Source: Gammaproteobacteria bacterium
GTDB taxonomy: Bacteria > Pseudomonadota > Gammaproteobacteria > Tenderiales > Tenderiaceae
DNA: 64,000 bases
Direction of reading: 5' to 3'
Assembly: GCA_021731365.1 (NCBI GenBank)
Contig: JAKFXL010000003.1
Span: 69,234 to 133,233, forward strand
In this document: piece after piece, positions 5,819-37,380 of the stretch
Numbering within the stretch: the stretch's first letter is position 1
Layout: each line of letters opens with the position of its first letter
Notes under the pieces: model-generated
Told to the model about the DNA's origin: nothing
Database searches by the model: none
Seen by the model: only the letters and a program-made list of their open reading frames with translations
Made by a program: the position numbers and the translations under genes

Positions 5819-6544
5819 TCAAGGGTTGTTGTCGTTATAAAGATCAACACACCGCTGGCAGACACAGGCACGCATCCGTAACGCCGCCGGGATCCGCTCC
5901 AGCAACCCTTGAGGAATATTGACCACCTGACACCAACAGCTGTTACAGCCCACATCATCCACACGCGGGCAACGGTTGGCCTCACCACACAACGGGCAGC
6001 AACCTGCATCCAGCGCCACATTCAAAAACTGCACACAGATAAACTCCGCCACCGCCGCCACATCATTAATATCCAACAGTGGCAACGTTGTCACCAATGC
6101 ACCCTCTGTTGCCACCGCAATCACATATTTATCATCGGGGAAAATCAGCGGTTTGCCTAATGCCGCACGGTGCAACTCAATCTTCGGAATCGGCTCATGA
6201 CGAAACCCCTCCACCAATATCAGATCCAGCACACTCATATCCAACTGCTGCAACAACAGCCGTAAAGAGGGGTCAGCCGCACCCTCATCAAACTCTGTCA
6301 CCAAGGCCGAACGTTTTTGGGACGCCACCAACGTCTGCTGCGCCCCCGCCTGACGCAGGCGAAAGCTATCTTTACCCGGCAAATCAATATCAAAATCGTG
6401 ATGGGCATGTTTCACCACCGCCAACCGCACACCACGACGTCTCAATATCGGAATCAACTGCTCCAGCAGCGTGGTTTTTCCCGTGCCACTATAAGCAGCA
6501 AAACCAAGCAACGGCACTATCGACTTCATCTCATCACCACTCAT
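5819..6544 (-). CDS. mobB: Molybdopterin-guanine dinucleotide biosynthesis adaptor MobB fused to a C-terminal cysteine-rich (CWC-type) domain
   Basis: P-loop GFAAYSGTGKTTL followed by VVKHAHHDFDIDLPGKDS (MobB signature). C-terminal ~60 aa CPLCGEANRC...CNSCWCQ...CVCQRC. ATGA overlap with the upstream gene. Confidence 0.8.
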   Translation of the reverse strand: MSGDEMKSIVPLLGFAAYSGTGKTTLLEQLIPILRRRGVRLAVVKHAHHDFDIDLPGKDSFRLRQAGAQQTLVASQKRSALVTEFDEGAADPSLRLLLQQLDMSVLDLILVEGFRHEPIPKIELHRAALGKPLIFPDDKYVIAVATEGALVTTLPLLDINDVAAVAEFICVQFLNVALDAGCCPLCGEANRCPRVDDVGCNSCWCQVVNIPQGLLERIPAALRMRACVCQRCVDLYNDNNP

Positions 6545-6894
6545 GCCATCAACTTCGCTCTAAAAATAAAAAAGACCGCCCCCATCAAACACAGCCCAGC
6601 CCAAAAATAGTCCATCGTCAACTTCTCCTTCATATAAAAAAGTGCAAAAGGCACAAAGACCAGCAGCGTAATCACCTCCTGCATAATCTTCAGCTGACCA
6701 ATCGTCATCACCTCATAACCAATACGATTGGCAGGCACCTGCAACATATACTCAAACAGGGCAATGCCCCAGCTCACCATCGCCGCAATGATCCAAGGCT
6801 TGTCCGACAGATTTTTAAGATGGGCATACCAGGCAAAGGTCATAAAGATATTGCTGCAAATCAACAGCCCTGCGGTCACCAGATAGGGATTCAT
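6541..6894 (-). CDS. DMT-superfamily small membrane protein (DUF486-like)
   Basis: 117 aa, four hydrophobic helices. The N-terminus MNPYLVTAGLLICSNIFMTFAWYAHLK resembles the DUF486/DMT half-transporter family. Confidence 0.65.
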   Translation of the reverse strand: MNPYLVTAGLLICSNIFMTFAWYAHLKNLSDKPWIIAAMVSWGIALFEYMLQVPANRIGYEVMTIGQLKIMQEVITLLVFVPFALFYMKEKLTMDYFWAGLCLMGAVFFIFRAKLMA

Positions 6895-7010
6895 TCAACA
6901 GGCCTCGTTCAACGCCTTACCAGCATGGCAAGAGATTATGCGAGTGGCAACACCATTAAACAACATCGGGAGCCAGCAGGAACGGTCGGCGATAGCACAA
7001 ACCATAAAAT

Positions 7011-7044
7011 GTAGGGTGGGCACGCTTTTCGTGCCCACCAAGCC
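7011..7044. repeat. REP-like palindromic element, family A (GTAGGGTGGGC...GCCCACCAAGC)
   Basis: Perfect 10-bp inverted repeat: ggtgggcacg (7015-7024) / cgtgcccacc (7030-7039), 5-nt loop. The same flanking words recur at 20971-20997. Confidence 0.75.
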
Positions 7045-7117
7045 TTGCGCAGCAACACAAAACCGGTTTTAAATCCAACGACTCAGCAGCCTCAATCAAC
7101 CATGTGGTGAACGCCAA

Positions 7118-7150
7118 AATGTCGGGTTACGCTACGCTAACCCGACCTAC
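7118..7150. repeat. REP-like palindromic element, family B (GTCGGGTTA-N8-TAACCCGAC)
   Basis: Perfect 9-bp inverted repeat: gtcgggtta (7121-7129) / taacccgac (7138-7146), followed by ctac. Intergenic. Confidence 0.7.
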
Positions 7151-7183
7151 GCGATTTTTTTGTTATATCTCGGCTTTAGAACG

Positions 7184-8905
7184 CTATCCTTTTCGCTTCT
7201 TTTTAAGTGATCTATTGATCGAATCTACCAGCTTGTAAAACTCCACATAACCGTCTGTCCCTGGTTTATACGTTTTAAAAAAAGCATCTTGTTTAAAGCG
7301 CTTTAGTTTCTGTTTAGCATCCTTGTTTCCTTCATCTGAGCTAGAGGCTAAGTCAAAAACATCTGGATGAACAGAAGCAACATCTGAGGTTATTTGTGAT
7401 GGCAAAAGTCCTTCAATATTTTTCTTACCACCAATTGCCAGGCCGATAGAAAAGAAATCCTCATTCCTTTTCAGGCCAAGATTTTCAAGTTTCTTCGAGA
7501 CCTTTCCATCTACATCAAGGTCAAACGTGATAATCACCCGACTGAATCGCTCCAATATAAATTTCATCATAACGTCGTTCGAGAAAAAACCGTCGCCGCC
7601 ATAAGAGAAAACAGCCCCTTTCAGGTCAAGTTGTTTTTCTCCATGCTCTGGCTTCTGTAAGTGTTCAAAGTAATCTTTATCTATTTCACCCTCGACAAGT
7701 ATCAGCTCATCAGCGTCGGCAAATAGAATTGCGCGCCATGGCCCAAACGAATCTGCCGTTACGCCCAAAGCCATGGCAAATGGGCGCATCCAATCGCCGC
7801 CAGCGGTATCTTCTAGCTGAGTCTCCAATGCGCGGCCGCGTTCTGTTCGCCGAGTGAGAAGAATATTCGCATCAGGGCGCTCAACGCTCAGCATGTGTGG
7901 ACTGTGTGTTGTGGCAATAACCTGAACTTCGAATTCTTTTGAAAGATCGCGAAGGAGTATACCGAACTCAGCTTGTGCAGACGGATGTAAGAAGCTTTCT
8001 GGCTCTTCGATAACGATGATAGGAGTAATCCGATTAGACTCAGTTCCGGCTTCTCGTATCTTTTTTGCCCTGAGCAATGCCAAGAGAATGTGGGTTCTAT
8101 TCTGTGTACCACTTCCCCAATCATCTAGTGGCACATCCTCCTTCTTATCACCAAGAGATAATTGAAATGGAAAATTTTCAACGTCAAAACTTGGTATAGA
8201 TATTCCCACCTCATACTTTTCATCAAGCCTTCCAAGCATTTCACCTATTTCAAGTTTATGTTTAGCAGCAACTGCGTTGAGTCGTTTAAATAACTGATCT
8301 TTAGCGGTCTTTATTTTTTCACGATCTTCATCTGTTAGTGATCCAAAAAATGACACAGCCCTCGGGTTTAGTGCGTATGGATGCTTTGGCTGGGTAGAGT
8401 TGTGGAATACGAAAGCATTCGAGGTTTTTAATTTTTTGTGAATCTCTTGAACCTTGTATTCATCATTAATAATCTCTCCATGGCATGTCAATCTGTAGAT
8501 TGGCTCAATAGATTTATTGTTGAATGTAAGAGAGAATTCCAAAACAATGTCATCTTCCTCGCATGTGAATGACAGAAATGTTTGCACGAATCTGAAAAGC
8601 CCCTCATCACGGAGCTTATGTACACGTACTCGCATTGAGAATTCAATTGGTAGTCGCACTTCATCCTGTCTTTTCCATAATGGATAGTCAGATTTGTGTG
8701 ATACGGATGTGGCCTCTGTATCAAATGGATCGTAGCCATCATCCTCAACAAAAAATGCACGCATTACTTTCAATAAGTTCGATTTTCCTGCGTTGTTTTT
8801 CCCTGATATTGCAGAATAGTAATCTGGAAAGATAATTGAGCAATCAGCAAGAGTTCGATAGTTTTTTACGGAAATGTGTTCAATGCGCATAGCGTTATTT
8901 GACAA
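7184..8905 (-). CDS. OLD-family ATP-dependent endonuclease (ABC-type ATPase + Toprim), stand-alone
   Basis: Walker A GKNNAGKS, Walker B IIVIEEPESFLHP, GSGTQ signature-like motif, ATTHSPHML H-loop. C-terminal Toprim-like LILVEGEIDKDYF and FDLDVDG (DxD). AT-rich relative to the flanks. Confidence 0.75.
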   Translation of the reverse strand: MSNNAMRIEHISVKNYRTLADCSIIFPDYYSAISGKNNAGKSNLLKVMRAFFVEDDGYDPFDTEATSVSHKSDYPLWKRQDEVRLPIEFSMRVRVHKLRDEGLFRFVQTFLSFTCEEDDIVLEFSLTFNNKSIEPIYRLTCHGEIINDEYKVQEIHKKLKTSNAFVFHNSTQPKHPYALNPRAVSFFGSLTDEDREKIKTAKDQLFKRLNAVAAKHKLEIGEMLGRLDEKYEVGISIPSFDVENFPFQLSLGDKKEDVPLDDWGSGTQNRTHILLALLRAKKIREAGTESNRITPIIVIEEPESFLHPSAQAEFGILLRDLSKEFEVQVIATTHSPHMLSVERPDANILLTRRTERGRALETQLEDTAGGDWMRPFAMALGVTADSFGPWRAILFADADELILVEGEIDKDYFEHLQKPEHGEKQLDLKGAVFSYGGDGFFSNDVMMKFILERFSRVIITFDLDVDGKVSKKLENLGLKRNEDFFSIGLAIGGKKNIEGLLPSQITSDVASVHPDVFDLASSSDEGNKDAKQKLKRFKQDAFFKTYKPGTDGYVEFYKLVDSINRSLKKKRKG

Positions 8906-8940
8906 CCTTATTGGGCAGAATTAGCAAGTAGCCTGGAAGC

Positions 8941-8999
8941 AGCGTAGCGAATTCCGGGGAGCGTCTCCCGGATTGCACTTCGTTTCATCCGGGCTACCC
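8941..8999. repeat. REP-like palindromic element, family C (CCCGGAT-N13-ATCCGGG, with an adjacent imperfect hairpin)
   Basis: Perfect 7-bp inverted repeat: cccggat (8967-8973) / atccggg (8987-8993). Preceded by an imperfect ccgggga/tctcccgg hairpin. Intergenic. Confidence 0.65.
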
Positions 9000-9142
9000 G
9001 TCTGAGTTATTGATTTGATTTTCATGACATGACCCCTCATGCAGATTGTGTTTGTCACTATGGCAAATTGTGGGATGGGGGGCAATGCTTTTTTGGGTTA
9101 GCATGGGGGTGGATGCGTCAGGGGCAACAATCATTTTATTTA

Positions 9143-14483: not shown

Positions 14484-15374
14484 ATGGGCCACACCATGCC
14501 GCACTGGAACAGCATCGCCAACCACATCAGCAGCACTACCGGCACCCCCTTCCAGTGCCAACAGATACAGCAGAGCGGTGGCGGCTGCATCAACCACACC
14601 TACCGGATCAGTGATCAGCAGCAGCGCTACTTCGTCAAACTCAACCAGCCACAGCGCGCACCGATGTTCGCCGCAGAGGCCACCGGTTTACAAGTAATTG
14701 CCACCACCCAGACTATCCGAGTTCCCGCAGTCATCTGTCACGGTACCAACACAACGGAAAGCTACTTGGTGCTGGAGAATCTCGACCTTGGTACCGGCGG
14801 CCCACAGAGTCAGCGACAGCTCGGACAACAGCTAGCACAGATGCATCGCCACAGTGCCAGCCAGTTTGGCTGGCACCTAAACAACACCCTCGGTACCACC
14901 CCACAACCCAATACACAAAACGACAACTGGATTGAGTTCTGGCGCAGCCAACGGCTTGGCCAGCAGCTGCAACTGGCGGCGGCAAATGGTTATGGCGGCA
15001 CACTGCAAGCACTGGGGCAACAGCTGCTTGATCGACTGGACGATTTTTTTATCGACCACCAGCCAGAACCCTCACTGCTGCATGGCGACCTCTGGTCCGG
15101 CAACTACGCCATCGCCACGGACGGCACACCGCTGATCTTTGATCCGGCGGTCTACTACGGCGATCGCGAAACCGACATCGCCATGACCGAACTGTTTGGT
15201 GGTTTTGCGGCGGAGTTCTATCAGGGCTATGAATCAGAGTACCCACTTGCACCCGGCTACCAACAGCGCAAACCGCTCTACAACCTCTACCACATACTCA
15301 ACCACCTCAACCTGTTTGGTGGCGGTTATCAACGTCAGGCAGTGTCGATGATGGAGCGGCTGTTGCGTGGGTGA
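14484..15374 (+). CDS. Fructosamine/ketosamine-3-kinase family protein
   Basis: Aminoglycoside-kinase-like motifs: LLHGDLWSGN, IFDPAVYYGDRETDIAM, and C-terminal YNLYHILNHLNLFG. Start uncertain (14484 or 14496). Confidence 0.8.
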   Translation: MGHTMPHWNSIANHISSTTGTPFQCQQIQQSGGGCINHTYRISDQQQRYFVKLNQPQRAPMFAAEATGLQVIATTQTIRVPAVICHGTNTTESYLVLENLDLGTGGPQSQRQLGQQLAQMHRHSASQFGWHLNNTLGTTPQPNTQNDNWIEFWRSQRLGQQLQLAAANGYGGTLQALGQQLLDRLDDFFIDHQPEPSLLHGDLWSGNYAIATDGTPLIFDPAVYYGDRETDIAMTELFGGFAAEFYQGYESEYPLAPGYQQRKPLYNLYHILNHLNLFGGGYQRQAVSMMERLLRG

Positions 15375-15406
15375 TGTTGATTTATATGGCAGATGCCTAT
15401 GGTCAA

Positions 15407-15853
15407 TTAATGTGAGAAATACCAAAAGTTCTTTTCATCTGAACCTTTATCCCTGCACAATACTCCACCCTCTAATACTTTATCAGGAACGTGTATTTCA
15501 CCATTTTTTATTAAAACACCCTGCGAATCGACGCCACACACAAGGTCATCAGATAAACCCCACTCTTTCCGGGTTTCATTTGATACTGGTGAACCTGAAA
15601 CAATCAAAACCGCGTCAACACCAATATTGGCATACGAATAATATTGGGGGGTCTGTTTCGGGCTTCGAAGAAAATGACATGGCGGCTTGGGGGAGATCAA
15701 CTTTTTTTCATTCCCATACACCAAATAACACTTCTCACTCTCTTCGATCACTTTAATTTCATGTGAGAAAAGCGATATTTCATCAATTGTATTTTCTGAG
15801 GCCGAGGAACATGACATTAAAAAAAACAGTGTTAAATAACAAAATTTTTTCAT
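15407..15853 (-). CDS. Cys-rich periplasmic lipoprotein; candidate immunity partner of the upstream amidase
   Basis: MKKFCYLTLFFLMSC lipobox-like signal. No known domain. Its ATG overlaps the amidase stop (ATGA at 15850-15853). Very AT-rich. Confidence 0.6.
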   Translation of the reverse strand: MKKFCYLTLFFLMSCSSASENTIDEISLFSHEIKVIEESEKCYLVYGNEKKLISPKPPCHFLRSPKQTPQYYSYANIGVDAVLIVSGSPVSNETRKEWGLSDDLVCGVDSQGVLIKNGEIHVPDKVLEGGVLCRDKGSDEKNFWYFSH

Positions 15854-16290
15854 AACGTTAACCCCCAGAACCAAACCTCCTCACCAAGAGCAAAATAATT
15901 CGAAAACCCACCCTTCATCGCAACCCCATTCCAAACGTCTATATGGTCAGTAGCCCCCCACCCATTTTTTATAAAGACAATACCTTTCCTTCCTTTAAAG
16001 TCCTGACTGGTAACATTTTTATGAACTTCCGCATTACCAAATAAGGCGCTTTTGGTTTTCATCCAGTTTGCCAGTTCTTGTGCTGCCAATATGTGGCTCG
16101 GCGCATGTTTAAATCCTGGGTAACATCGCCTGTTTGGGTACATAAGATCAAACGAACTTGTATCAATACCCGTTTTTTCTAAAGCAACCCCCATTCTAAT
16201 TGCACATTGATTTGTGAACGTCTCCTCATCACACGGGCTATCGGGATAGGGATGGTTCGCCCACAACATATGAAACTGCACTAATGCCAT
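15850..16290 (-). CDS. Tae4-like (papain/NlpC-P60 superfamily) peptidoglycan amidase, no signal peptide
   Basis: NQCAIRMG (catalytic Cys context) and KGRKGIVFIKNGWGATDHIDVWNG (His context) parallel the Tae4 motifs NACPIRMS and KKGIIVV..GHVTLWNG recalled from memory. SD AGGAGG lies 7 nt upstream of the ATG. Confidence 0.6.
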   Translation of the reverse strand: MALVQFHMLWANHPYPDSPCDEETFTNQCAIRMGVALEKTGIDTSSFDLMYPNRRCYPGFKHAPSHILAAQELANWMKTKSALFGNAEVHKNVTSQDFKGRKGIVFIKNGWGATDHIDVWNGVAMKGGFSNYFALGEEVWFWGLTL

Positions 16291-16302
16291 ATTGCATTCC
16301 TC

Positions 16303-17085
16303 CTACTGAAAAATCAGCTGCAACAATTTGCCATGGGTCTTTTCAGCAAGGGTGTTGTACTCGTGCCAGGTATTGGGATCGGCGCGGCCGATGGGGATGG
16401 TGAAGACGGGGGCGGGGATATCCAGGTAATAGATGCGATCATCCGAGGGTTCATCACCCAGCAGTATGTAGGCACCGGGCACCGGGGCGTTCTCTTTGGC
16501 ACGGAAAAACGCTTCGCCGATGGTTTCGTTGCCGCCGATAAACGGTGCCCCTTTCATAAAGCTATCGAGCATCTCGCCCATGGTGCCCTGATAGGTATTG
16601 GTTTTGCCATCGGCAAACCAGGTGACGGCGGATACCTCTTTTTGTGAGCGGGCGACGATAACCCGTAACAGCGGCACCAGAAATCCGGAGACACCGTGCA
16701 TGGAGCCGGTGGCGTCGATGATGAGATGCAGATCTTTGCCGGGGATCGCCTCCAGCCCTTTTACAAACAGGTCAAAATCTTTGCGCCCTTTTGCATCATT
16801 CAGCCCAACCGCTTGCAGCACCTGCTCCAGCTGCGCCTCGCCGCTCATATCACTCACATCACCCAGCTCGTTGTATAGGCGCTGATTATCCTCTTCCATC
16901 GCTGCCAGCCGCTCTTTCATGGCGGCGGCCTCTTTTTTGAGGCGGGGGAATTCACTGCCCTCCTGGCTCTTGGCGGTGATGAGGATGATGACCAGAAGAA
17001 AGATAAAGGTCATTAACATCATGAGCGCCAGATCAGAGAAGCTCTCATGGATGTTTGATTCGGAGTTGCGGCGTTTTTTTCGCAT
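16303..17085 (-). CDS. MotB/ExbD-like single-pass membrane anchor fused to a coiled coil and a vWA domain
   Basis: Basic N-terminus MRKKRRN, then a transmembrane segment with conserved Asp (SFSDLALMMLMTFIFLL) as in MotB. vWA MIDAS LIIDATGSM, GGNETIG, ILLGDEPSDD. An alternative GTG start lies at 17133. Confidence 0.65.
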   Translation of the reverse strand: MRKKRRNSESNIHESFSDLALMMLMTFIFLLVIILITAKSQEGSEFPRLKKEAAAMKERLAAMEEDNQRLYNELGDVSDMSGEAQLEQVLQAVGLNDAKGRKDFDLFVKGLEAIPGKDLHLIIDATGSMHGVSGFLVPLLRVIVARSQKEVSAVTWFADGKTNTYQGTMGEMLDSFMKGAPFIGGNETIGEAFFRAKENAPVPGAYILLGDEPSDDRIYYLDIPAPVFTIPIGRADPNTWHEYNTLAEKTHGKLLQLIFQ

Positions 17086-17090
17086 GGCGG

Positions 17091-18086
17091 TTACTGCCGG
17101 GGGCGGAGCAGTTCGTAGATCCTGATCCACCACGGTTTGTTGGTCACGGCTAACATGTGCATCTGCTGCCGTAGCGCTTCGCAGTACTCCTGGTGGCGAC
17201 TGATGATGACCCGCAATGGCTCCTGGCCCTGTTCACCTGACTCGCTCTCGCCCAACCGTTTTATCTCTTCGCGAAACTCCGTGACCATCTGGCGCGACTC
17301 GGCAAAGCTCTGTTTCATCATCTGCACGTTTTGGTCGAGCTGGCGCAGCTCTTCGTTGAGCAGTCGCACATCACGTTCTAACGTCTGTGCATAATCGGGC
17401 GAGCAGTAGACCAGGCAGATGCGCAGCAAGTTGTCATGCAGCCCTTCAATGCCGTGCAAGGTGAGCTGTGCAAACATGCGTAACAAGATACCCCCCAACA
17501 CCGCACCCAGCAGGGTGGTATAAAAAGCTGTGCCCATGCCGGACATGGCGTGGCGCAGCCCCAGGAGCATCATCTCCTGGTCATGGCCCAGTGAATCGAG
17601 GGAGCTGCTGAGTCCGGAGAGGGTCATGGTCAACCCCATGACGGTTCCAATCAGACCCAGGGTAATCAGCAGATTGCCAATCACTTCAATGGTGTGGTTG
17701 ATGCGCTCGTATACGGCCAGCTCAACATGCAGCAGGGTTTCAACCTCGGGTTCACCCTTGCGCTCCATGGTCGATTTCAGTGAGTGAAAAAAGCGGTCTG
17801 CGGCCCGTTTTTCCGATTCGATGGTGATGGCATCCAGCCCCCCCTGACTCGCCGCTGCATTGAGGTGCATACAGCGCACTGACTCCTTGGTGACCATCAA
17901 TGTCACCACAAAGCTACCCAACACACCTAGCAGAAAGAGCCCAATAATGAGCCAGGTGATCCGGCTCGGGTCGACCTGCACAAAGGTCCAGACATCGGTA
18001 TCACGGTACAACGTAAGATAGATGACCAAGGCGGCACTGGCCCAGATGGTCCACAAAATTAAGGTACGGTATGGCTGTTGATTCAC
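17091..18086 (-). CDS. MotA/TolQ/ExbB-family proton-channel protein with C-terminal coiled-coil tail
   Basis: MotA_ExbB core (IGNLLITLGLIGTVMGL ... GMGTAFYTTLLGAVLGGILL). The last ~90 aa are heptad-like and charged (LNEELRQLDQNVQMMKQSFAESRQMVTEFREEIKRL). GTG start with GGGGAG upstream. Confidence 0.7.
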   Translation of the reverse strand: MNQQPYRTLILWTIWASAALVIYLTLYRDTDVWTFVQVDPSRITWLIIGLFLLGVLGSFVVTLMVTKESVRCMHLNAAASQGGLDAITIESEKRAADRFFHSLKSTMERKGEPEVETLLHVELAVYERINHTIEVIGNLLITLGLIGTVMGLTMTLSGLSSSLDSLGHDQEMMLLGLRHAMSGMGTAFYTTLLGAVLGGILLRMFAQLTLHGIEGLHDNLLRICLVYCSPDYAQTLERDVRLLNEELRQLDQNVQMMKQSFAESRQMVTEFREEIKRLGESESGEQGQEPLRVIISRHQEYCEALRQQMHMLAVTNKPWWIRIYELLRPRQ

Positions 18087-18333
18087 GCCCTGGACTCCCC
18101 TGAACTGTCCAAATCTCCCCTTGGCAAGAGACCCCCATCTCCCACTCTTTTTATCTAGTGGTTCAATATACCGTCGATGCTGGCGAGATAGCTAGGCACA
18201 ACCGGGATTTAGATTGCCAAACAGCCATAACAGCTGACACAACCCAGCTCGGCAAGAAAATACCAAGTGCTGGCATAATTGCCGGGGCAGATGCCACTAA
18301 ACGTAGCGGCTTATAATGAGGATGGGATACGTC

Positions 18334-18969
18334 ATGTTTTATAAGGAGGCTCTCAGCACCATTGCAATAGTGCTCACTGTTGCAGCCTTCTATCCGTATG
18401 CACGTGGCATCATCCAGGGTGCAATAAAACCCCATGTCTTTTCTTGGGTGATATGGGGAACAACCACCTTTGTGGTCTTTCTGGCTCAACTCGAAGCAGA
18501 CGCTGGCGTGGGCGCATGGCCCATCGGGGTTTCAGGCAGCATCACAATTTTTATCGCCCTGTTGGCTTACCTAAAACGGGCCGACGTCGCCATCACAAAA
18601 ACAGACTGGCTGTTTTTTACGCTGGCCATCTCGTCCCTGCCGCTCTGGTACTTAACATCTGATCCCGTGTCGGCTGTAATCGTGCTGACAGTTGTCGATC
18701 TGCTCGGCTTTGGGCCGACGGTTAGAAAGGCAAATGCTAATCCGTACTCAGAGTCTCTGCTGTTTTTTGCACTGTTTGGCGCACGCAATGGCATCGTTGT
18801 GATGGCATTGGAGAGCTATTCGGTTGCCACCGTACTGTTTCCGGCCACTATAGGGGCGGCAACTCTGTTGCTTATTGCACTTATTGTGTATCGGAGACGT
18901 CAGATGAGATCTGGCATTGTATTTGAGCAGGAGGGGCCAAAAATGGCGCCCCCTTCAAATAAAGATTAA
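18334..18969 (+). CDS. Polytopic membrane protein, function unknown
   Basis: About 211 aa with 6-7 hydrophobic helices. Divergent from the MotA-like operon. Start chosen at ATG 18334. Confidence 0.5.
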   Translation: MFYKEALSTIAIVLTVAAFYPYARGIIQGAIKPHVFSWVIWGTTTFVVFLAQLEADAGVGAWPIGVSGSITIFIALLAYLKRADVAITKTDWLFFTLAISSLPLWYLTSDPVSAVIVLTVVDLLGFGPTVRKANANPYSESLLFFALFGARNGIVVMALESYSVATVLFPATIGAATLLLIALIVYRRRQMRSGIVFEQEGPKMAPPSNKD

Positions 18970-30333: not shown

Positions 30334-31434
30334 TTAGGTTCGGCACTGCTCCAGCGTGGCCCGCAACAGGGCAGGATCAAACTGATCGGTGACTGTCGCT
30401 GCGCCAATACCCTGCAGCAACACCAGTCGAATAGAACCATCCTGCACTTTTTTGTCCACCGCCATCAGCTCCAGCATCCGTTCAACCGCGAGCGCCTTTG
30501 GCCCCCGCACCGGTAAACGCGCCTGTTTCAGGAGTGACTCTATGCGCTCCACATCACCCTGGACAAGCCACCCCAGCCGGGCAGAGAGGTCGGCGGCCAT
30601 GTAGGTACCCGCCGCAATCGCCTCGCCATGCAACCACTCGCCGTAACCCATGCCGGTTTCGATGGCATGACCAAAGGTGTGCCCCAGATTGAGCCAGGCA
30701 CGCACACCCTGCTCATGTTCATCTTCAGCCACCACCTCCGCCTTGTTCTGGCAGGAGCGCTCCACAGCATAGATCAACGCGGCGGGGTCACGCGCCAACA
30801 GCGCCGCCATATTTAACTCCAGCCAGTCAAAAAACTCACGATCGCGGATCAGCCCATACTTGATCACCTCCGCAATACCAGCACTAAACTGCCTGTCGTC
30901 AAGGGTGTCCAGTGTTGCGGTATCGGCAATCACACAACGCGGCTGGTAAAAGGCACCGATCATATTTTTACCCAACGGATGGTTGACCGCTGTTTTACCG
31001 CCCACAGAGGAGTCCACCTGCGCCAGCAGGGTTGTAGGTATCTGCACAAAAGGGACGCCACGCTGATAACAGGCCGCCGCAAAACCGGACATATCCCCCA
31101 CCACACCACCACCCAACGCAATAATCGTCACCTGGCGGCTGAAACGCTGCTCCAGCAATGCCGAAAATAGATCGTCCAGTACCGCCAGGGTTTTATACTG
31201 CTCGCCGTCCGGCAGCACGACCGTACCAACCCGGTAGTCCGCCAGCATCGCCACCACCCGCTCCAGATAGAGGGGGGCCACGGTGGTATTGCTCACGATC
31301 ATCACTTCGCGACCACTGATGTACGGCGTCAGCAGCTCTGGCCGCCCTAACAGGCCATGGCCGATATAGAGCGGATAGCTGCGCTCTGCCAGCGCCACGT
31401 TGAGCTTTTTTAGCTGTAAATTATCCGTTGTCAT
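30334..31434 (-). CDS. aroB: 3-dehydroquinate synthase
   Basis: [28 protein letters not shown] and HTFGHA motifs. Start overlaps the aroK stop. Confidence 0.92.
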
Positions 31435-32000
31435 CACTTCACATCTTCTTTAAACAGGCCACGGCGACGCAGCTGGCTCAGCAATTGACGGATCACACCA
31501 CGCACGCTGCCTTCACCAGTATCTACAATAATATCAGCCACTTCACGATAGAGCGGGTCACGCGCCTCAATTAGCGCTGCAATTCTGGCCCGTGGGTCTG
31601 CGGTTTGCAGCAGTGGCCGATTGCGGTCACGGGCAGTACGTTGGTAGAGCTGCTCCGTCTTGGCGCGCAGATAGACCACCGTGCCACGCAGGCGCAGATG
31701 GATCCGGCTATCAGCATCGAGCACTGCACCACCACCCGTGGCCAGCACCAGTCCACGACGTTGACTCAACTCATCAATCACATCACGCTCCCACTCCCGA
31801 AAGCCAGTCTCACCCTCCACCTCAAAGATTACGGGGATGGTGGTTCCGGTACGGCGTTCGATCTCATGATCACTATCAACAAACTCAAGGTTTAAGGTTT
31901 TGGCCAACTGCCTGCCAACCGTGGTCTTACCTGACCCCATGGGACCCACCAAAAAAATATTCTCCGGTTTTTCCGAAGTATGCGACATAACAACAGACAT
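31434..32000 (-). CDS. aroK: Shikimate kinase
   Basis: [20 protein letters not shown] Walker A and GGGAV motif. Sits between pilQ and aroB as in many gammaproteobacteria. Confidence 0.92.
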
Positions 32001-32060
32001 CCAAAATGCTGATCGAACGCAGAATTTACCAAATAAGTGGCTATGTCCGCCAATGCAAAT

Positions 32061-32099
32061 AAAAAAACCGGGGCCACGATCTTCCGTAGCCCCGGTTTT
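32061..32099 (-). terminator. Rho-independent terminator downstream of pilQ
   Basis: 8-bp GC stem accggggc (32067-32074) / gccccggt (32089-32096). On the minus-strand transcript it is followed by a U-run of about 6-7 (A-run 32061-32067 on the plus strand). Confidence 0.75.
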
Positions 32100-32118
32100 C
32101 GAAGGGTCTAAACAGCGT

Positions 32119-34344
32119 TTAGTTGAGCGACAACCCTTCCTTTACAATCTTCGGTGTAATAAAGACTAACAGCTCTTCCTTGCCATCTTTTTCAGACTTA
32201 CTGCGGAAAAGCGCACCAATCAGTGGCAAATCACCTAAGAATGGAACCTTGGTGGTATCTTTACGGGTCTCCTGTTCAAACACACCGCCCAGGACAATCG
32301 TCTCACCATTTTCAACCAGAACCTGGGTTTTGATCTCACGGGTATTGATACTTGGCACATCAAAGAAGATCTCCCCTACGCTGTCCTTATTGACCTGCAG
32401 GTCCATAATCACACGATCATCAGGGGTGATCTGCGGTGTCACCCGCAGACTCAGCACCGCCTTTTTGAATGAGACGGTGGTGGCACCGGCAGATGAGGAC
32501 TCCTGATAAGCAATCTCAACCCCCTGTTCAATGGTGGCCTCTTTCTGGTTTGCGGTGATGACACGCGGCGAGGAGACAACCTCACCCTTGCCTTCAATCT
32601 GCATGGCCGACAGCTCCAGATCAACATTGGTACCAAACGGCAACTTAACCATGCTCAACGCAAACGAACCGGCAGCAGCAGGCACGGGCAGATTGACATT
32701 CAAGCGCTCAGGCGCAGCTAACGTCTGATTATTGACCAGCTGATCAGTCGCCTTCAAGTTACCCGAAATGGCCGTACCACGACCACTGGAACCAGCCCCC
32801 ATGGTATCCCGCGACACCCCAAAACGGCTGCCAAGGCTGCGATCAAAGCCACTGTTTGCAATCACAATACGTGACTCAATCAGTACCTGACGCACCGGAA
32901 TATCGAGCACTGTAATCAGCTTACGGATCTCATCCAACTTGCTTGCAGTCTCCTGAACCAGCAGGGTATTGGTTCGGGCATCAAAGGTGACCGTACCACG
33001 GGTAGACAACAGTGAGGAGGCCCTGCCACTCGATCCGGCCGCACTTGCCGCCCCTGACGATGAGGCTGTCGCAACTCCACCGCCACGCAACAACAACTGT
33101 ATATCTGAGGCCTTGGCGTAGTTGATCTGGATCAGGTCCGAAAATAGCGGCTCCAGCTCAGTAATCTGCTTTTTGGCCTCCAGCTCCTGCTTCTCACGTG
33201 CAGCAATCTCCTCAGATGGACCAATGTACATAACACTGCCCATCTCACGCATCGCCAACCCTTTGGTTCTCAGGATGATATCCAGCGCCTGATCCCACGG
33301 CACGTTCTGCAAACGCAGGGTAAGACTGCCGGTCACCGTATCACTGGTCACCAGGTTCATACTGGTAAAGTCAGCAATCAGCTGCAATACTGCCCGCACC
33401 TCAATATTCTGGAAGTTGAGCGATAACCGTTCACCACCAAAGGCACGTTGATCACCCTTGCGTTTTAGCTCTTCCATATCTTTTTCTACGCTCTTTCTGA
33501 CCTCAATGGTCATCAGATTGCCTGACTGGTAGGCCATATGTTCATACTGCCCCTGCCCCGTTATCACCATGCGGACGTTATTCCCCTGACGGAACGTATC
33601 GATCAACGTCACTGGCGTGGCAAAGTCGGTCACATCCAGACGCTGCTCCAGCGCAGCGGGCACATTGGTATCCGTAAAGTCTAACGCCAGCTTACCGCCC
33701 TGCTGCTGAATATTCACATTAGTACCTGGGTCGGAGAGCGTCACCAGAATGCGCCCTTCGCCCTTATCACCACGGCGGAAATCGATGCTTTTGATGGCGA
33801 AGCTCGTCGGCGTTTCACGACTGCTAAAGGCGGCTGGTTTTTTATCAACCGGTGGCGAGCTCACCCCAGCACTGGCACCCTCCAGCGTGATGTAGACATT
33901 TTTACCATCAACCCTGGTTTCATACGGAACCAGTTGCACAAGATTCAATACCACGCGGGTCCGCCCACGCGCCTCAACGACATTGACACTACGTGCCACG
34001 CCCAGACCCACCTGAGTGGTACGTTTGGCCATCTTATTTTCAGTATCGGGAAAATCCAGGGCAATACGTGCCGGATTATTAATCGTAAAACTGATGGGGT
34101 CGGGTGCCGCTGCGGAGAGGGTGAACTTAATCTGGACACGGTTACCCGGCAAATTAGAAGCATCTACCGACTCCAGGGCGTTCCCCCCTTTTGTCCCGGT
34201 AGCCTGCGCCTGTGCCAACACTGGAACTGTCAAACCAAACAGCATCAAGGCCGCCAAAACTCCGTGTCTAAACATCTCCAGCCTCCATGCTCGATCCACC
34301 ATTTTTTTTATACCGCTCATCGTCAAAACCCGCTCCATTACCAT
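32119..34344 (-). CDS. pilQ: Type IV pilus secretin PilQ
   Basis: AMIN-like N-terminal repeats. C-terminal secretin core (VLVENGETIVLGG...VPFLGDLPLIGALFR). Follows pilMNOP. Confidence 0.92.
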   Translation of the reverse strand: MVMERVLTMSGIKKMVDRAWRLEMFRHGVLAALMLFGLTVPVLAQAQATGTKGGNALESVDASNLPGNRVQIKFTLSAAAPDPISFTINNPARIALDFPDTENKMAKRTTQVGLGVARSVNVVEARGRTRVVLNLVQLVPYETRVDGKNVYITLEGASAGVSSPPVDKKPAAFSSRETPTSFAIKSIDFRRGDKGEGRILVTLSDPGTNVNIQQQGGKLALDFTDTNVPAALEQRLDVTDFATPVTLIDTFRQGNNVRMVITGQGQYEHMAYQSGNLMTIEVRKSVEKDMEELKRKGDQRAFGGERLSLNFQNIEVRAVLQLIADFTSMNLVTSDTVTGSLTLRLQNVPWDQALDIILRTKGLAMREMGSVMYIGPSEEIAAREKQELEAKKQITELEPLFSDLIQINYAKASDIQLLLRGGGVATASSSGAASAAGSSGRASSLLSTRGTVTFDARTNTLLVQETASKLDEIRKLITVLDIPVRQVLIESRIVIANSGFDRSLGSRFGVSRDTMGAGSSGRGTAISGNLKATDQLVNNQTLAAPERLNVNLPVPAAAGSFALSMVKLPFGTNVDLELSAMQIEGKGEVVSSPRVITANQKEATIEQGVEIAYQESSSAGATTVSFKKAVLSLRVTPQITPDDRVIMDLQVNKDSVGEIFFDVPSINTREIKTQVLVENGETIVLGGVFEQETRKDTTKVPFLGDLPLIGALFRSKSEKDGKEELLVFITPKIVKEGLSLN

Positions 34345-34357
34345 GCCCCCTTTGGGA

Positions 34358-34918
34358 TCACTCTGCTATCGCCAATGATGCCTGGCGGGGCAGCCAACCG
34401 CCCAGACCATCCGGTACTATTTCAGTAATCTCGACCCGGTCAGGAAGTATTGCCGTCACCCGGCCATGGTTCTGCCCCAGATAATTGCCCTTCACTACCC
34501 GTGAAACCAACCCCTCTGGCGACCTGATCAACGCGGCGCTCTCTTTGTCACGCTGCAAGGTCCCCACCATGCTTAGCGCATCCAGCGGATACTCTTCCAG
34601 TGGCTCCTTTCTACGCTCAAAGCTAGGCTGTAAACCACCACCGGTTGTTGACTGCCGTTGTGCTTCCCGGGCCTTGGCGGCCTTTGCATCCCAGCCTACA
34701 AACGGATCGCCCAACTCATCCGCTGAGTAGGCAAAATTCTCCACTGACGTAAATTCCGGCAGCGGCGGCACCTTACCCTTACTATTAGCCTTGATGTCTG
34801 CAATATCTTTTTGCAGGTCATCCATATTGCCACCACTGCAACCTGATAGCACCAATACCAGCACCATACAGCAGCCGGGCAACAGAAGAGCGCCATTTTT
34901 CTTCAATGTCGATCTCAT
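34358..34918 (-). CDS. pilP: Type IV pilus assembly lipoprotein PilP
   Basis: Lipobox LSGC, size and position between pilO and pilQ, and a C-terminal PilP-like beta domain (LVGTLQRD...ALIRSPEG). Confidence 0.85.
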   Translation of the reverse strand: MRSTLKKNGALLLPGCCMVLVLVLSGCSGGNMDDLQKDIADIKANSKGKVPPLPEFTSVENFAYSADELGDPFVGWDAKAAKAREAQRQSTTGGGLQPSFERRKEPLEEYPLDALSMVGTLQRDKESAALIRSPEGLVSRVVKGNYLGQNHGRVTAILPDRVEITEIVPDGLGGWLPRQASLAIAE

Positions 34919-35523
34919 TGCCCCTCCTCCAGATACCGGTAAGTCTTGGCCTTAACCGACATGGAGAGCCTCTTGGCGTTATTTGCCTCCTTGCCAGCAG
35001 TGACACCAATATCGTGCAGCGTCACGATACGTGGCAATGCCGCCACATCACTTACAAACCGGCCAAAATCGTGATAATTACCGGTCACCTTGATATCAAT
35101 CGGTAATTCTGAATAAAACTCGGCGGGTACCTCAGCCAACGGTTTGAACAGCTCAAACTCCAAACCGTTGGCCAAACCCGCCTGGGAGATATCCACCAAC
35201 AATTCAGCCACCTCGGTTTTGCTCGGCAACTGCCGCAACATCGCACCAAAAGAGCGCTCCATATCGGCCATCTGCTGCTTGTAATCCTCCAGATTGATCG
35301 CCTTAATCTGCTTCGCTCTAAAAGCGTCTTTCAACTCCACCTCTTTTTGTTCAGCCTGCTTCAGCACCTCTAACTGCTGCTGGGTATCAAACCAGTAACC
35401 AAAAAAGAGAACTGCCACTGAAATCAATACGATAGCAATTGCCTTGGCAATTAAAGGCCATGAACCAACATCATTAAAATCCAGGGTTTTAAGCTGTTCA
35501 AAATCAATTTTTTTGATGCTCAT
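34915..35523 (-). CDS. pilO: Type IV pilus assembly protein PilO
   Basis: Single transmembrane segment plus coiled coil. Motif DFGRFVSDVAALPRIVTLHD typical of PilO. 4-nt overlaps with both neighbours. Confidence 0.85.
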   Translation of the reverse strand: MSIKKIDFEQLKTLDFNDVGSWPLIAKAIAIVLISVAVLFFGYWFDTQQQLEVLKQAEQKEVELKDAFRAKQIKAINLEDYKQQMADMERSFGAMLRQLPSKTEVAELLVDISQAGLANGLEFELFKPLAEVPAEFYSELPIDIKVTGNYHDFGRFVSDVAALPRIVTLHDIGVTAGKEANNAKRLSMSVKAKTYRYLEEGQ

Positions 35524-36100
35524 TGTGCTTCACCGGTCTTTTTCTTTTCAACCGCATCGGGAGCCAACTGTTTTACCTTCAGCACAAATTTGCTGACACG
35601 ATCCCCAGCCTTATCCTGCGCCTGAATAACATCAAGCTTAGGGTTGCTAAACCAGGCGGAGTCTTCCAGGTTTCGCATAAAAGCGGATATTCTGGCATTC
35701 GATTGTGCCATCCCTTCTAACTCCAACTCTGTCTCTTTTTGCGTCACCTTAGTCAATACGGTCCCTTCAGGCAATGTACGCACCAGCTCATCAACAAGAT
35801 GCACACTCAATGGGCGGCGTGTCTGCAAGTCCTGAATGACCGTCATCCGGTTAAGCAACTGGGTTTTTTTAGTCTCAAGCTCACGAATCTCTTTAATGCT
35901 TTCGTCAACCTTGGCAATCTCCGCCTCGAGCAAGGCGTTACGGGCATTTTGATGCTCAACCATGCTGTCAATATGCAGATGTGCGTAAAAAACAACGACC
36001 GCCATTAAAAAAACGACGCCCCCGGCAATCGAAGCAAACTGGCGCTTACGCTCTTTACGTAGCGTTTCACGCCAGGGTAATAGGTTAATACGCGTTGTCA

Positions 36101-36101
<1 letters not shown>
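35520..36101 (-). CDS. pilN: Type IV pilus assembly protein PilN
   Basis: N-terminal INLLPWRE motif, single transmembrane segment, and position in the operon. Confidence 0.88.
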
Positions 36102-37222
<1,121 letters not shown>

Positions 37223-37380
37223 TTAATATCATACTTTATATTAATTCAACAGATAATGGACACACCGGTGTCACATTCATGCTATTCCAGCTTATCGGGG
37301 TTAGACTATCAAAGCTTGATCTATCTACTGTAAAATTATACCGCTAAAGACATTTCACCCACGTTTTGGAAACAACTTTA

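Follow-up and report, generated by a model that had tools for sequence, protein, structure and literature searches.

Zorya is an anti-phage system driven by a 5:2 motor, ZorAB, in which ZorB has a peptidoglycan-binding C-terminal domain and ZorA a long cytoplasmic tail, with ZorC/D, ZorE or ZorF/G as partners. A different architecture, in which TPH-vWA proteins are combined with TolQ-like motor subunits, was predicted computationally in a 2025 paper; its function is unknown and no phenotypes were reported (PMC12204202). The membrane-tethered TPH-vWA proteins were proposed to dimerise as the inner subunit of 5:2 motors, and their genes occur mostly in heterologous pairs, the published exemplar being from Idiomarina loihiensis (PMC12204202). 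Among wall-degrading toxins, Ssp1-Rap1a of Serratia (PDB 4bi3) is a Tae4-Tai4 pair of type VI amidase effector and immunity protein (PMC3852654).

The locus described here lies in a window of 64,000 nucleotides, the whole stretch of DNA that we analysed, where four minus-strand ORFs (g1-g2-g3-g4) are tightly packed between positions 15407 and 18086. Reading the junctions from the sequence confirmed the spacing given in the initial annotation: g1 and g2 are 5 nt apart (TAA-CCGCC-ATG), g2 and g3 are 12 nt apart (TAG-GAGGAATGCAAT-ATG), and g3 and g4 share an ATGA overlap. A Shine-Dalgarno sequence, GGAGGA, overlaps the g2 stop codon, and no terminator-like site was found between the four genes on the minus strand. 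Given the 12-nt spacing, the position of the Shine-Dalgarno sequence and the absence of a terminator, g3-g4 are probably transcribed with g1-g2, which makes regulatory coupling possible in the window strain. The initial annotation had interpreted the block as a single Zorya-like system with an amidase effector; our analysis supports its individual domain assignments but not this central claim. In our view the block is probably a chimera of two independent modules, a motor-like pair (g1-g2) and a cassette (g3-g4), which happen to be co-transcribed.

The first gene, g1 (331 aa; 17091..18086, minus strand), encodes a channel subunit of the MotA/ExbB/TolQ family. Residues 111-213 match Pfam MotA_ExbB (PF01618) with an E value of 1.2e-9 and 38.4 bits against a cut-off of 22.9, and the protein has four predicted transmembrane helices in a MotA-like topology followed by residues 207-331, a helical C-terminal tail of about 125 aa in the cytoplasm, in agreement with the channel core and tail originally proposed. 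Alignment conservation identified the family Thr motif in TM3, G144-L-I-G-T148-V-M-G151 (17634..17657, minus strand), and its partner in TM4, A187-F-Y-T190-T191-L-L-G194. Nearly all residues of the two motifs, including T148, T190 and T191, are invariant in alignments of 25 and 62 sequences, and g1 is 34-97% identical to its orthologues. By analogy with ExbB, TolQ and MotA, these three threonines may line the pore. Profile matches of g1 to solved MotA chains are weak (E 0.003-0.02), and for g1 and g2 taken together, profile matches to the solved chains of MotA, ZorA and ZorB span E values from 0.003 to 1.

The product of g2 (260 aa from the ATG of MRKKRR; 16303..17085, minus strand) resembles a B subunit, as judged from a conserved Asp, the AlphaFold model and Foldseek. 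Its basic N-terminus is followed by a single transmembrane helix containing Asp18, a periplasmic coiled coil (residues about 45-95) and a vWA/MIDAS domain (about 100-260). The helix, FSD18LALMMLMTFIFLLV, has a MotB-like FSDLxxxM context and places Asp18 (codon 17032..17034, minus strand) at its cytoplasmic end. This putative ion-carrying residue is invariant in 23/23 homologues, as is its equivalent in 21/21 proteins of a sister family discussed below. The N-terminus also gave weak matches to ZorB and MotB-N-terminal profiles.

In the Pfam search g2 matched no model, including those for VWA and OmpA-type peptidoglycan binders, and its family profile retrieved only 30 matches among 1.84 billion representatives, marking the family as isolated in sequence. 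Since no sequence profile matched, the vWA assignment rests on predicted fold and motif. AlphaFold modelled the C-terminal domain with pLDDT values of 70-93 (means of 10-residue blocks), and the top Foldseek matches in the PDB were all vWA domains, beginning with that of CLCA1 (6pyo, E 5e-5), then VWF A2 and CMG2. The MIDAS loop D124-A-T126-G-S128 (16702..16716, minus strand) is completed by T188 and D211, and D124, T126, S128, T188 and D211 are all invariant in the homologues. In the AF2 model these residues occupy canonical vWA positions, at the end of strand 1 (E118-124), before helix 189-199 and after strand 205-210. Moreover, hhalign linked g2 to the sister family, some members of which match Pfam VWA, with a probability of 97.5% (E 5e-12). 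According to these data, g2 is predicted to carry a vWA fold with a complete MIDAS. The basic N-terminus, the membrane-embedded Asp and the non-OmpA vWA anchor noted initially are therefore all retained, as is the description of the channel pair as an uncharacterised stator-like module; of the profile searches proposed at that stage, those for MotA_ExbB in g1 and Tae4 in g3 gave matches, but that for VWA in g2 did not.

A genome scan counted 146 stretches encoding relatives, and we compared a set of 80 loci, 77 of them with upstream DNA. In all 77, g1 lies directly upstream of g2 on the same strand. The carriers are Ca. Tenderia, other uncultured Gammaproteobacteria and Zetaproteobacteria, and across these two proteobacterial classes g1-g2 show 50-98% identity and core-like synteny, with lineage-dependent housekeeping neighbours that include gltD, hemE, mpl, ubiX, phosphoribulokinase, a Zn-peptidase and iPGM. 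Sequence identity declines for g1 and g2 in parallel with gltD and hemE (loci L001, L002, L004 and L005), the GC3 values of g1 and g2 (0.72 and 0.68, respectively) reflect a native composition, and g2 is absent from plasmid and phage collections. Every locus has a single g2 copy, with no further MotB/ExbD-like ORF seen in the g1-g2 flanks, and one MAG, UBA5122, holds two g1-g2 copies (L012 and L019). Most of the 80 loci have a gene for a fructosamine kinase, DUF1820 or a small lipoprotein converging on g2, which is therefore the last gene of the operon there; no conserved third gene was found beside the pair in the set. Thus, g1-g2 is a vertically inherited two-gene operon, carried by a clade of uncultured Gammaproteobacteria of chemolithoautotroph type (Ca. 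Tenderia and its relatives) and also by Zetaproteobacteria. It is best read as a conserved, uncharacterised proton-motor-like pair, a stand-alone ion motor of the 5:2 type with a periplasmic vWA head.

The third gene, g3 (146 aa; 15850..16290, minus strand), encodes a Tae4-family peptidoglycan amidase, as originally suggested, matching Pfam Tae4 (PF14113) with an E value of 4e-20 and 72.5 bits against a cut-off of 27. It also matches sequences of Tae4 crystal structures and Ssp1 (PDB 4bi3; E 3e-6), whose catalytic C50 aligns with g3 C29. The catalytic residues assigned by alignment, C29 (16204-16206) and H116 (15943-15945; both minus strand), are invariant together with D118 in 23 homologues. 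Vibrio and Pseudoalteromonas proteins named 'T6SS effector amidase Tae4 family' are 60-65% identical to g3, and a Kosakonia protein 58%. As also noted initially, it lacks a signal peptide, and the amidase would need a dedicated route to get from the cytoplasm of its own cell to the wall. The fourth gene, g4 (148 aa from the ATG of MKKF; 15407..15853, minus strand), encodes a periplasmic lipoprotein with the lipobox LMSC15 and conserved Cys residues, again as first described; profile searches with g4 matched no family, and neither g4 nor its homologues match a known immunity family. A g4-homologous ORF follows the Tae4 gene in L003 (82% identity), L085 (49%) and L081 (31%), and a small overlapping ORF occupies this position in L082-L084, L091 and L092 as well, making g4 the putative cognate immunity protein of g3.

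Synteny breaks and GC3 delimit a 930-bp acquired segment (15373..16302) that contains g3 and g4 and lies between the stop codons of g2 and of the convergent fructosamine-kinase gene. In blastn comparisons, synteny with L001 breaks at window position 16303 and that with L002 resumes at 15372; in L001, the nearest relative (90-93% nucleotide identity to the window), homology ends exactly at the g2 stop and a different gene comes next. The GC3 of g3 (0.42) and g4 (0.35) is foreign relative to the 0.68-0.72 of their neighbours, and no repeats were found flanking the segment. Besides the window, g3-g4 follow g1-g2 in a single close relative, L003 (1 of 80 loci), and among three close relatives the slot after g2 holds a Tae4 gene with its partner, a DUF5677 protein or an unknown 182-aa ORF. 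The notion of one four-gene system fails on this distribution, set against the 77/77 loci with adjacent g1-g2: neighbourhood comparison upholds the conserved pair but not its union with the cassette, most loci having a convergent gene next. Likewise, accessory genes were thought to interrupt a gltBD-hemE neighbourhood, which is true of g3-g4 and of a 217-aa ORF, whereas g1-g2 belong to the conserved neighbourhood itself.

Pairs of a Tae4 gene and an overlapping partner recur in unrelated bacteria without MotA/vWA genes, in Vibrio, Pseudoalteromonas, Kosakonia and metagenomic islands. The Vibrio pair, with a 4-nt overlap, belongs to an array of small ORFs that resemble cassettes, all on one strand and next to a tyrosine integrase (Phage_integrase), another pair lies in an island that also holds toxin-antitoxin (TA), TIR and transposase genes, and the Kosakonia and Pseudoalteromonas pairs are surrounded by housekeeping genes. 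No T6SS genes were seen within 8 kb of six homologous Tae4 cassettes. The claim that the 64 kb contain no T6SS gene holds for the ORFs scanned, which included part of the small ORFs in the window and no member of a T6SS family. Hence g3-g4 is read as a recently acquired, putative toxin/immunity cassette with a cell-wall amidase that moves between bacteria by itself, with no demonstrated functional tie to the g1-g2 motor.

A distant sister family (P0269) forms six-gene operons in four loci (L086, L088, L089 and L090). Its MotA-like protein is 36-44% identical to the TM3-TM4 core of g1, and the layout of g2 recurs in its B protein, where FYESFSD leads into a helix, then a coiled coil and finally a vWA domain bearing a DGSGSM MIDAS loop. 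Four additional genes, kept in most of the four loci, encode a protein of about 300 aa (its L090 copy contains a zinc-ribbon-like CxxC...CxxC motif), a Gly-zipper protein, a coiled-coil protein and a TPR/Sel1 protein. The terminal genes vary and are toxins in 2/4 loci: one operon ends with Ntox46 (2e-15) and, after it, a functionally uncharacterised ORF of 224 aa, another with Colicin_D (3e-7) followed by a weak colicin-immunity-like ORF. Integrases and transposases lie next to two of the four loci, and a resolvase and a toxin-antitoxin pair accompany a third. These extra genes, terminal toxins and mobile-element neighbours distinguish the sister operons from g1-g2, around which none of them is found. 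Three features count against a two-module reading of the window block: the probable shared transcript, the variable slot after g2 and the existence of this toxin-linked, distantly related motor family. They leave a small probability that the cassette is cargo of the motor.

The pairing of a homologous motor (36-44% in the g1 core, 97.5% hhalign probability for the B protein) with terminal toxins in 2/4 sister loci could indicate that g1-g2 is a novel export or delivery route, in which the motor powers envelope crossing by a variable downstream toxin, here Tae4. Yet the four sister accessory genes are all missing from the 8 kb on either side of g1-g2 in the 80 loci and from the whole 64-kb window, a toxin follows g2 in one lineage only, and the closest Tae4 relatives are named as T6SS cargo and occur as orphans without motor genes; of the alternatives we weighed, we find this the least probable. 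Also highly improbable is a Zorya-like anti-phage function, whereby g1-g2 would sense envelope perturbation, the g1 tail would signal, Tae4 would act as an abortive-infection lysis effector and the lipoprotein as its safety catch. Such a function is suggested by the tight gene spacing in the window, by the variable slot after g2 in close relatives and by profile scores: g1 matches ZorA models (PADLOC ZorA1, 1.4e-8; NCBIfam ZorA_4 and ZorA_2, about 2e-4) better than those of MotA, ExbB or TolQ, and g2 partially matches ZorB1 through its N-terminus only (3e-5). However, the PADLOC matches are partial, the NCBIfam scores are 20.4 bits for ZorA_4 against a cut-off of 500 and 20.0 for ZorA_2 against 100, and the g1 tail of about 125 aa compares with matched PADLOC ZorA models of 420-700 positions. 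Further arguments against it are the vWA domain of g2 in place of a peptidoglycan-binding one, the lack of a same-strand effector of the Tae4 kind in 75/77 loci, most of which end with a convergent housekeeping gene, the core-like conservation of g1-g2, the foreign composition and motor-free circulation of g3-g4, and the inaccessibility of the producer's own wall to a cytoplasmic Tae4 that has no dedicated route. With scores below the cut-offs, no ZorB-type domain, a short tail and no conserved effector, g1-g2 were rejected as members of Zorya.

The pair possesses the channel domain, the Thr motifs and the downstream Asp-helix B subunit that, at the level of sequence, would place it in the MotA/TolQ/ExbB-type motor superfamily. 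It could accordingly be argued to be the clade's own divergent TolQR, ExbBD or flagellar/gliding stator with a replaced periplasmic domain, given the MotA_ExbB domain and MotA-like four-helix topology of g1 and its weak matches to MotA chains. We regard this as unlikely: equivalog models give 13-14 bits against cut-offs of 237-380, TolA, TonB, Pal and flagellar genes are absent beside g1-g2 in every lineage, the g2 family is isolated, and UBA5122 has two copies.

Under the preferred two-module reading, g1-g2 would most likely assemble as an ion-driven 5:2 complex of the MotAB/ExbBD type, with a ring of g1 around two g2 helices and Asp18 as the proton carrier. From this ring g2 would project a dimeric coiled coil of about 50 residues tipped by the vWA domain with its intact MIDAS metal site, and this head may clamp an acidic ligand in the periplasm or on the wall or outer membrane. 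Proton flow could then exert force or rotation on the clamped ligand; alternatively, ligand engagement may gate the channel, the cytoplasmic helical tail of g1 being the inner end of the device. The physiological role we infer for the pair, like its stoichiometry, ion flow and ligand, is provisional, and is probably envelope housekeeping. The Tae4 amidase and its lipoprotein immunity partner would be a horizontally acquired orphan cassette inserted in the gap after g2.

Comparison with the described systems places the two modules as follows. As in Tae4-Tai4, a Tae4 domain with conserved Cys and His and no signal peptide precedes a translationally coupled, periplasm-targeted small protein, but g4 falls outside the known immunity families and the cassette is an orphan pair with no T6SS gene in the scanned surroundings. 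As in Zorya, the first gene encodes a MotA-family subunit that ends in a helical tail and the next a MotB-like Asp-helix subunit, and the best, albeit weak, profile matches of both g1 and g2 are to this system; in contrast to Zorya, g1 has a tail several-fold shorter and g2 a vWA domain instead of the peptidoglycan binder, none of ZorC, ZorD, ZorE, ZorF or ZorG is present beside g1-g2, and, where Zorya is patchily distributed in defence islands, this pair is chromosomal, conserved and syntenic. With MotAB/PomAB, ExbBD and TolQR it shares the MotA_ExbB domain and the GxxGT and TT helix motifs of g1, the single-pass helix of g2 with an Asp by its cytoplasmic end and the A-then-B gene order with near-overlap, whereas g2 lacks an OmpA-like or TolR-type periplasmic domain. 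Compared by described architecture, the TPH-vWA systems (PMC12204202) differ in their heterologous vWA pairs where our loci have a single g2, in that g2 lies outside Pfam VWA models and is sequence-isolated, and in the MotA-like four-helix topology and coiled-coil tail of g1, which scores closest to ZorA models. In common with them, g2 is a membrane-anchored protein whose trans-pore helix bears an Asp and whose C-terminal part is a vWA domain, and its gene, in place of a separate tolR, exbD or motB, adjoins a gene of the MotA/TolQ/ExbB family.

Four open reading frames called on the minus strand of the window at 15407-18086 are transcribed in the order g1 (17091-18086, 331 aa), g2 (16303-17085, 260 aa from its own ATG), g3 (15850-16290, 146 aa) and g4 (15407-15853, 148 aa). 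Read in the window sequence, the junctions are exactly as the initial annotation gave them: TAA-CCGCC-ATG between g1 and g2, TAG-GAGGAATGCAAT-ATG between g2 and g3, and an ATGA overlap between g3 and g4. A GGAGGA ribosome-binding site ahead of g3 overlaps the g2 stop codon. A promoter/terminator scan, whose counts lay at or under shuffle expectation, placed no terminator-like hairpin between the genes, and g1-g4 are probably one transcript in the window strain. The initial annotation had read the block as one stator-driven, Zorya-like four-gene system. Its four genes and its identification of the parts held up, but the single system did not: comparative context points to a native operon, g1-g2, with a foreign toxin/immunity cassette, g3-g4, at its end.

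The channel subunit g1 scored above the Pfam threshold for MotA_ExbB over residues 111-213 (E = 1.2e-9); its matches to ZorA models were weak and partial (PADLOC, 1.4e-8; NCBIfam, ~2e-4, scoring 20 bits against cut-offs of 100-500). In an alignment of 62 sequences (g1 and 61 orthologues), the motifs GLIGTVxG (T148) and AFYTTL (T190, T191) were invariant in the last two transmembrane helices, while the C-terminal helical tail of ~125 residues was poorly conserved. A profile search of the PDB with g1 returned coiled-coil noise and weak MotA and ZorA-like matches, and the single-sequence structure model was poor (pLDDT 56, pTM 0.33).

Because no Pfam or NCBIfam family, vWA included, matched g2, we relied on AlphaFold and Foldseek for its fold. 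The protein has a basic N-terminus and a single helix, FSD18LALMMLMTFIFLLV, that resembles the N-terminus of MotB and ZorB (PADLOC ZorB1, 3e-5) and whose D18 is invariant (23/23 homologues). The AlphaFold2 model, built from a 23-homologue alignment, predicts a single long helix that runs through residue 79 and leads into an alpha/beta domain with pLDDT of 70-93 (10-residue block means). Essentially all significant Foldseek matches in the PDB were vWA domains, among them the CLCA1 VWA domain (5e-5), the Cav alpha2delta subunit, VWF A2 and CMG2. Consistent with this assignment, D124-x-T126-x-S128, T188 and D211 are invariant and placed like the MIDAS residues of vWA domains. Single-sequence and profile searches of the PDB with the g2 sequence gave noise and weak ZorB/MotB-N matches only.

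g2 belongs to a tight, isolated family. Its 532 protein clusters are almost all of 260 aa, the 120 listed of them being at least 56% identical to g2, and a g2 profile run against 1.84 billion representative proteins gave just 30 matches, most of them fragments of the family itself. No g2 homologue was present in the plasmid and phage collections. Two exported proteins recovered with the g2 profile (P0267 and P0268) carry a g2-type vWA domain fused to near-threshold LysM-like segments, the Pfam LysM matches being weak (5e-4 and 9e-5). These fusions hint that the ligand of g2-type vWA domains may be wall-proximal and that this vWA subtype may work beside the cell wall.

Ion-driven 5:2 motors drive TonB-dependent uptake, Tol-Pal and gliding as well as flagella, type 9 secretion and the Zorya defence systems. 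Four hallmarks support a MotAB/ExbBD-type 5:2 ion motor for g1-g2: a channel subunit with a MotA_ExbB domain, its Thr motifs, the invariant Asp in the helix of its partner, and genes in A-then-B order that nearly overlap. The inner subunit of this putative motor would end in a coiled-coil stalk and a MIDAS-vWA head in place of a wall-binding domain. To our knowledge, every newly identified periplasmic head on such motors has to date been a pointer to a new envelope process.

Searching the species-representative genome collection with a profile of g2 homologues gave 146 stretches that encode relatives, and 80 loci were fetched for comparison. The best, from a Ca. Tenderia sp., has 98% protein identity, and 90-93% nucleotide identity to the window; the other loci come from uncultured Gammaproteobacteria and from Zetaproteobacteria (Mariprofundaceae). 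In every one of the 77 loci with DNA upstream of g2, g1 is the immediately preceding gene, and the pair stays at 50-98% identity among Gamma- and Zetaproteobacteria that are iron, sulfur or electrode oxidisers. The flanking genes are housekeeping genes that differ by lineage, and the gene after g2 is convergent in most loci, encoding a fructosamine kinase, a DUF1820 protein or a small lipoprotein. The GC3 of g1 and g2 (0.72 and 0.68) is like that of their neighbours. Since the g2 family is isolated and absent from plasmids and phages, and synteny is conserved, the data point to g1-g2 as a vertically inherited module, probably with a housekeeping role; a gene of a defence island would look different. 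Two candidate core partners of g1-g2, a 148-aa DUF4019-like lipoprotein (14 loci) and a membrane protein of ~490 aa (17 loci), were rejected: both are confined to particular lineages, mostly form separate transcription units and do not occur in the window. One metagenome-assembled genome, UBA5122, carries two diverged g1-g2 copies on separate contigs (L012 and L019), with g2 61% and 59% identical to that of the window, which could be a genuine duplication or the product of a mixed bin.

The remaining two genes probably have a different history. g3 is a clear Tae4-family amidase (PF14113, 4e-20) that aligns with the sequences of the Ssp1 and Tae4 crystal structures, catalytic Cys included; C29, H116 and D118 are invariant in the homologue alignment. 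g4 has a lipobox (LMSC15) and conserved cysteines, and searches of the family libraries matched it to no known family. The GC3 of g3 and g4 is 0.42 and 0.35. Among the 80 loci, only one (L003) has g3-g4 beside g1-g2, at ~170 nt from g2 as against 12 nt in the window. Ca. Tenderia-like genomes have a variable slot in the short gap that separates g2 from the convergent fructosamine-kinase gene. It holds the Tae4 cassette in the window (15373-16302) and in L003 (2490-3537), an unrelated 182-aa ORF in the close relative L001 (8857-9405), whose homology to the window stops exactly at the g2 stop codon, and a DUF5677 protein in L002 (8134-8907). A search for flanking repeats, att or attC-like, found nothing convincing around the g3-g4 insert, and no repeats mark the insertion site.

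Outside this group, g3 shares 60-65% identity with proteins of Vibrio alginolyticus, Pseudoalteromonas and Bowmanella that are annotated as 'T6SS effector amidase Tae4 family', and 58% with a Kosakonia protein. A small ORF follows the Tae4 gene in each context examined, with a 4-nt overlap in nearly all; this ORF is homologous to g4 (49% and 31% identity) and shares its cysteines. Three of the contexts, from V. alginolyticus, consist of small cassette-like ORFs arrayed on one strand, and one of these arrays adjoins a tyrosine integrase (Phage_integrase). A metagenomic island with the Tae4 pair also contains genes of toxin-antitoxin, TIR/SLATT and transposase type, and the pairs of Kosakonia and Pseudoalteromonas are surrounded by housekeeping genes. 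No MotA-like, vWA or T6SS gene was found within 8 kb of these cassettes. Because Tae4 and a g4-type ORF recur elsewhere without such genes, g3-g4 is best described as an autonomous cassette of the putative effector/immunity type. The inserted segment, 930 bp long (15373-16302), separates g2 from the convergent kinase gene. We regard the Tae4-lipoprotein pair as an ordinary orphan effector/immunity cassette, although its putative immunity family is unannotated.

Those full-length relatives of g2 that are most distant from it make up a sister family, named here after its member P0269, with the same layout of a FYESFSD motif, helix, coiled coil and vWA domain (hhalign probability 97.5%, E = 5e-12); some members match Pfam VWA. 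The gene is preceded by a MotA-like gene, whose product shares 36-44% identity with g1 across the TM3-TM4 core. Four such operons, on metagenomic and genomic contigs (L086:228-5498; L088:5105-10979; L089:5165-11181; L090:5165-12156), encode in order a MotA-like protein, the vWA-stator, a ~300-aa protein, and Gly-zipper, coiled-coil and TPR/Sel1 proteins, the four extra genes being conserved in most of the loci. In the L090 copy, translation of the ~300-aa protein reveals a zinc-ribbon-like CxxC...CxxC motif. The terminal genes are variable. Two of the four loci have toxin domains there: one has Ntox46 (2e-15) with an unannotated ORF of 224 aa behind it, the other Colicin_D (3e-7), followed by a weak colicin-immunity-like ORF. 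Integrases or transposases lie near two of the operons, and a resolvase and a toxin-antitoxin pair near a third. No PADLOC system matched these operons, which may represent an undescribed motor-linked toxin system.

g1-g2 may represent a distinct lineage of ion-driven 5:2 motors that had gone unannotated, with a MIDAS-vWA head at the end of the rotor or anchor subunit, and this lineage may be a branch of a broader superfamily of vWA-stators. The mobile branch, with its six-gene sister operons, may use the motor to deploy polymorphic toxins, and the slot after g2 in Ca. Tenderia may be a remnant or early form of the same motor-plus-cargo logic, holding, depending on the relative, Tae4 with its putative immunity protein, a DUF5677 protein or an ORF without assignment. 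The sister system leaves a small probability for this logic. The accessory genes of the sister operons are absent near g1-g2 in the 80 loci and in the window, and the sister system does not rescue the four-gene reading of the window locus. We regard this reading as a whole, in which the motor would functionally serve the Tae4 amidase, as very improbable. A native motor-like pair followed by an acquired cassette remains our preferred interpretation. Tight spacing and a plausible story had pointed to one system where comparative context said otherwise, which makes this a useful negative result; the sister operons with their terminal toxin genes are the more promising lead to a truly new motor-linked toxin system.

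Elsewhere in the window, a 217-aa multi-pass membrane ORF (18316-18969, plus strand) lies between a conserved 288-aa gene and g1. It matched no family, has a lower GC3 (0.54), occurs only in the window, L001 and L003, and is a further accessory insertion in the g1-g2 neighbourhood. A low-GC patch at about 7000-9000 contains a 573-aa OLD/AriA/GajA-like AAA_15 ATPase gene (7184-8905, minus strand; PADLOC AriA 2.6e-35, Old 1e-32, GajA 1e-22), with a GC of 0.41 and GC3 of 0.37 against 0.54 for the window. It adjoins ubiX and mpl and is probably a defence gene that was acquired; no family matched the 311-aa ORF beside it (6079-7014, plus strand). By ORF size, order and N-terminal sequences, 31434-37222 (minus strand) looks like aroK and pilQPONM, beside what looks like a divergent PBP1A-like gene (37366-39762, plus strand), an ordinary conserved neighbourhood as read from the ORF list.

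We rate the two-gene vWA-stator family as the interesting object of this locus, a variant of a recently predicted kind. The sole paper found that pairs vWA proteins with 5:2 motors (Mol Biol Evol 2025, PMC12204202) reports a tight co-occurrence of tolQ-like genes with vWA proteins that are tethered to the membrane and carry an Asp in their trans-pore helix, unaccompanied by a tolR or exbD gene, and proposes these proteins as the dimeric motor partner; the vWA genes occur mostly as heterologous pairs, and the function of the class is unknown. A literature search on Tenderia or Zetaproteobacteria stator systems found nothing relevant. With g1-g2, an architecture predicted computationally in 2025 gains a clean, single-copy, testable family, defined by the invariant D18, the MIDAS residues, T148, T190 and T191. 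It is a compact two-gene version, in which the usual wall-binding domain is swapped for a metal-dependent adhesion (vWA/MIDAS) domain. Compared by description only, g1-g2 fits the principle of the published class but differs from it in three respects: its vWA gene is always single, the g2 family escapes the Pfam VWA models, and g1 is MotA/ZorA-like, with a tail.
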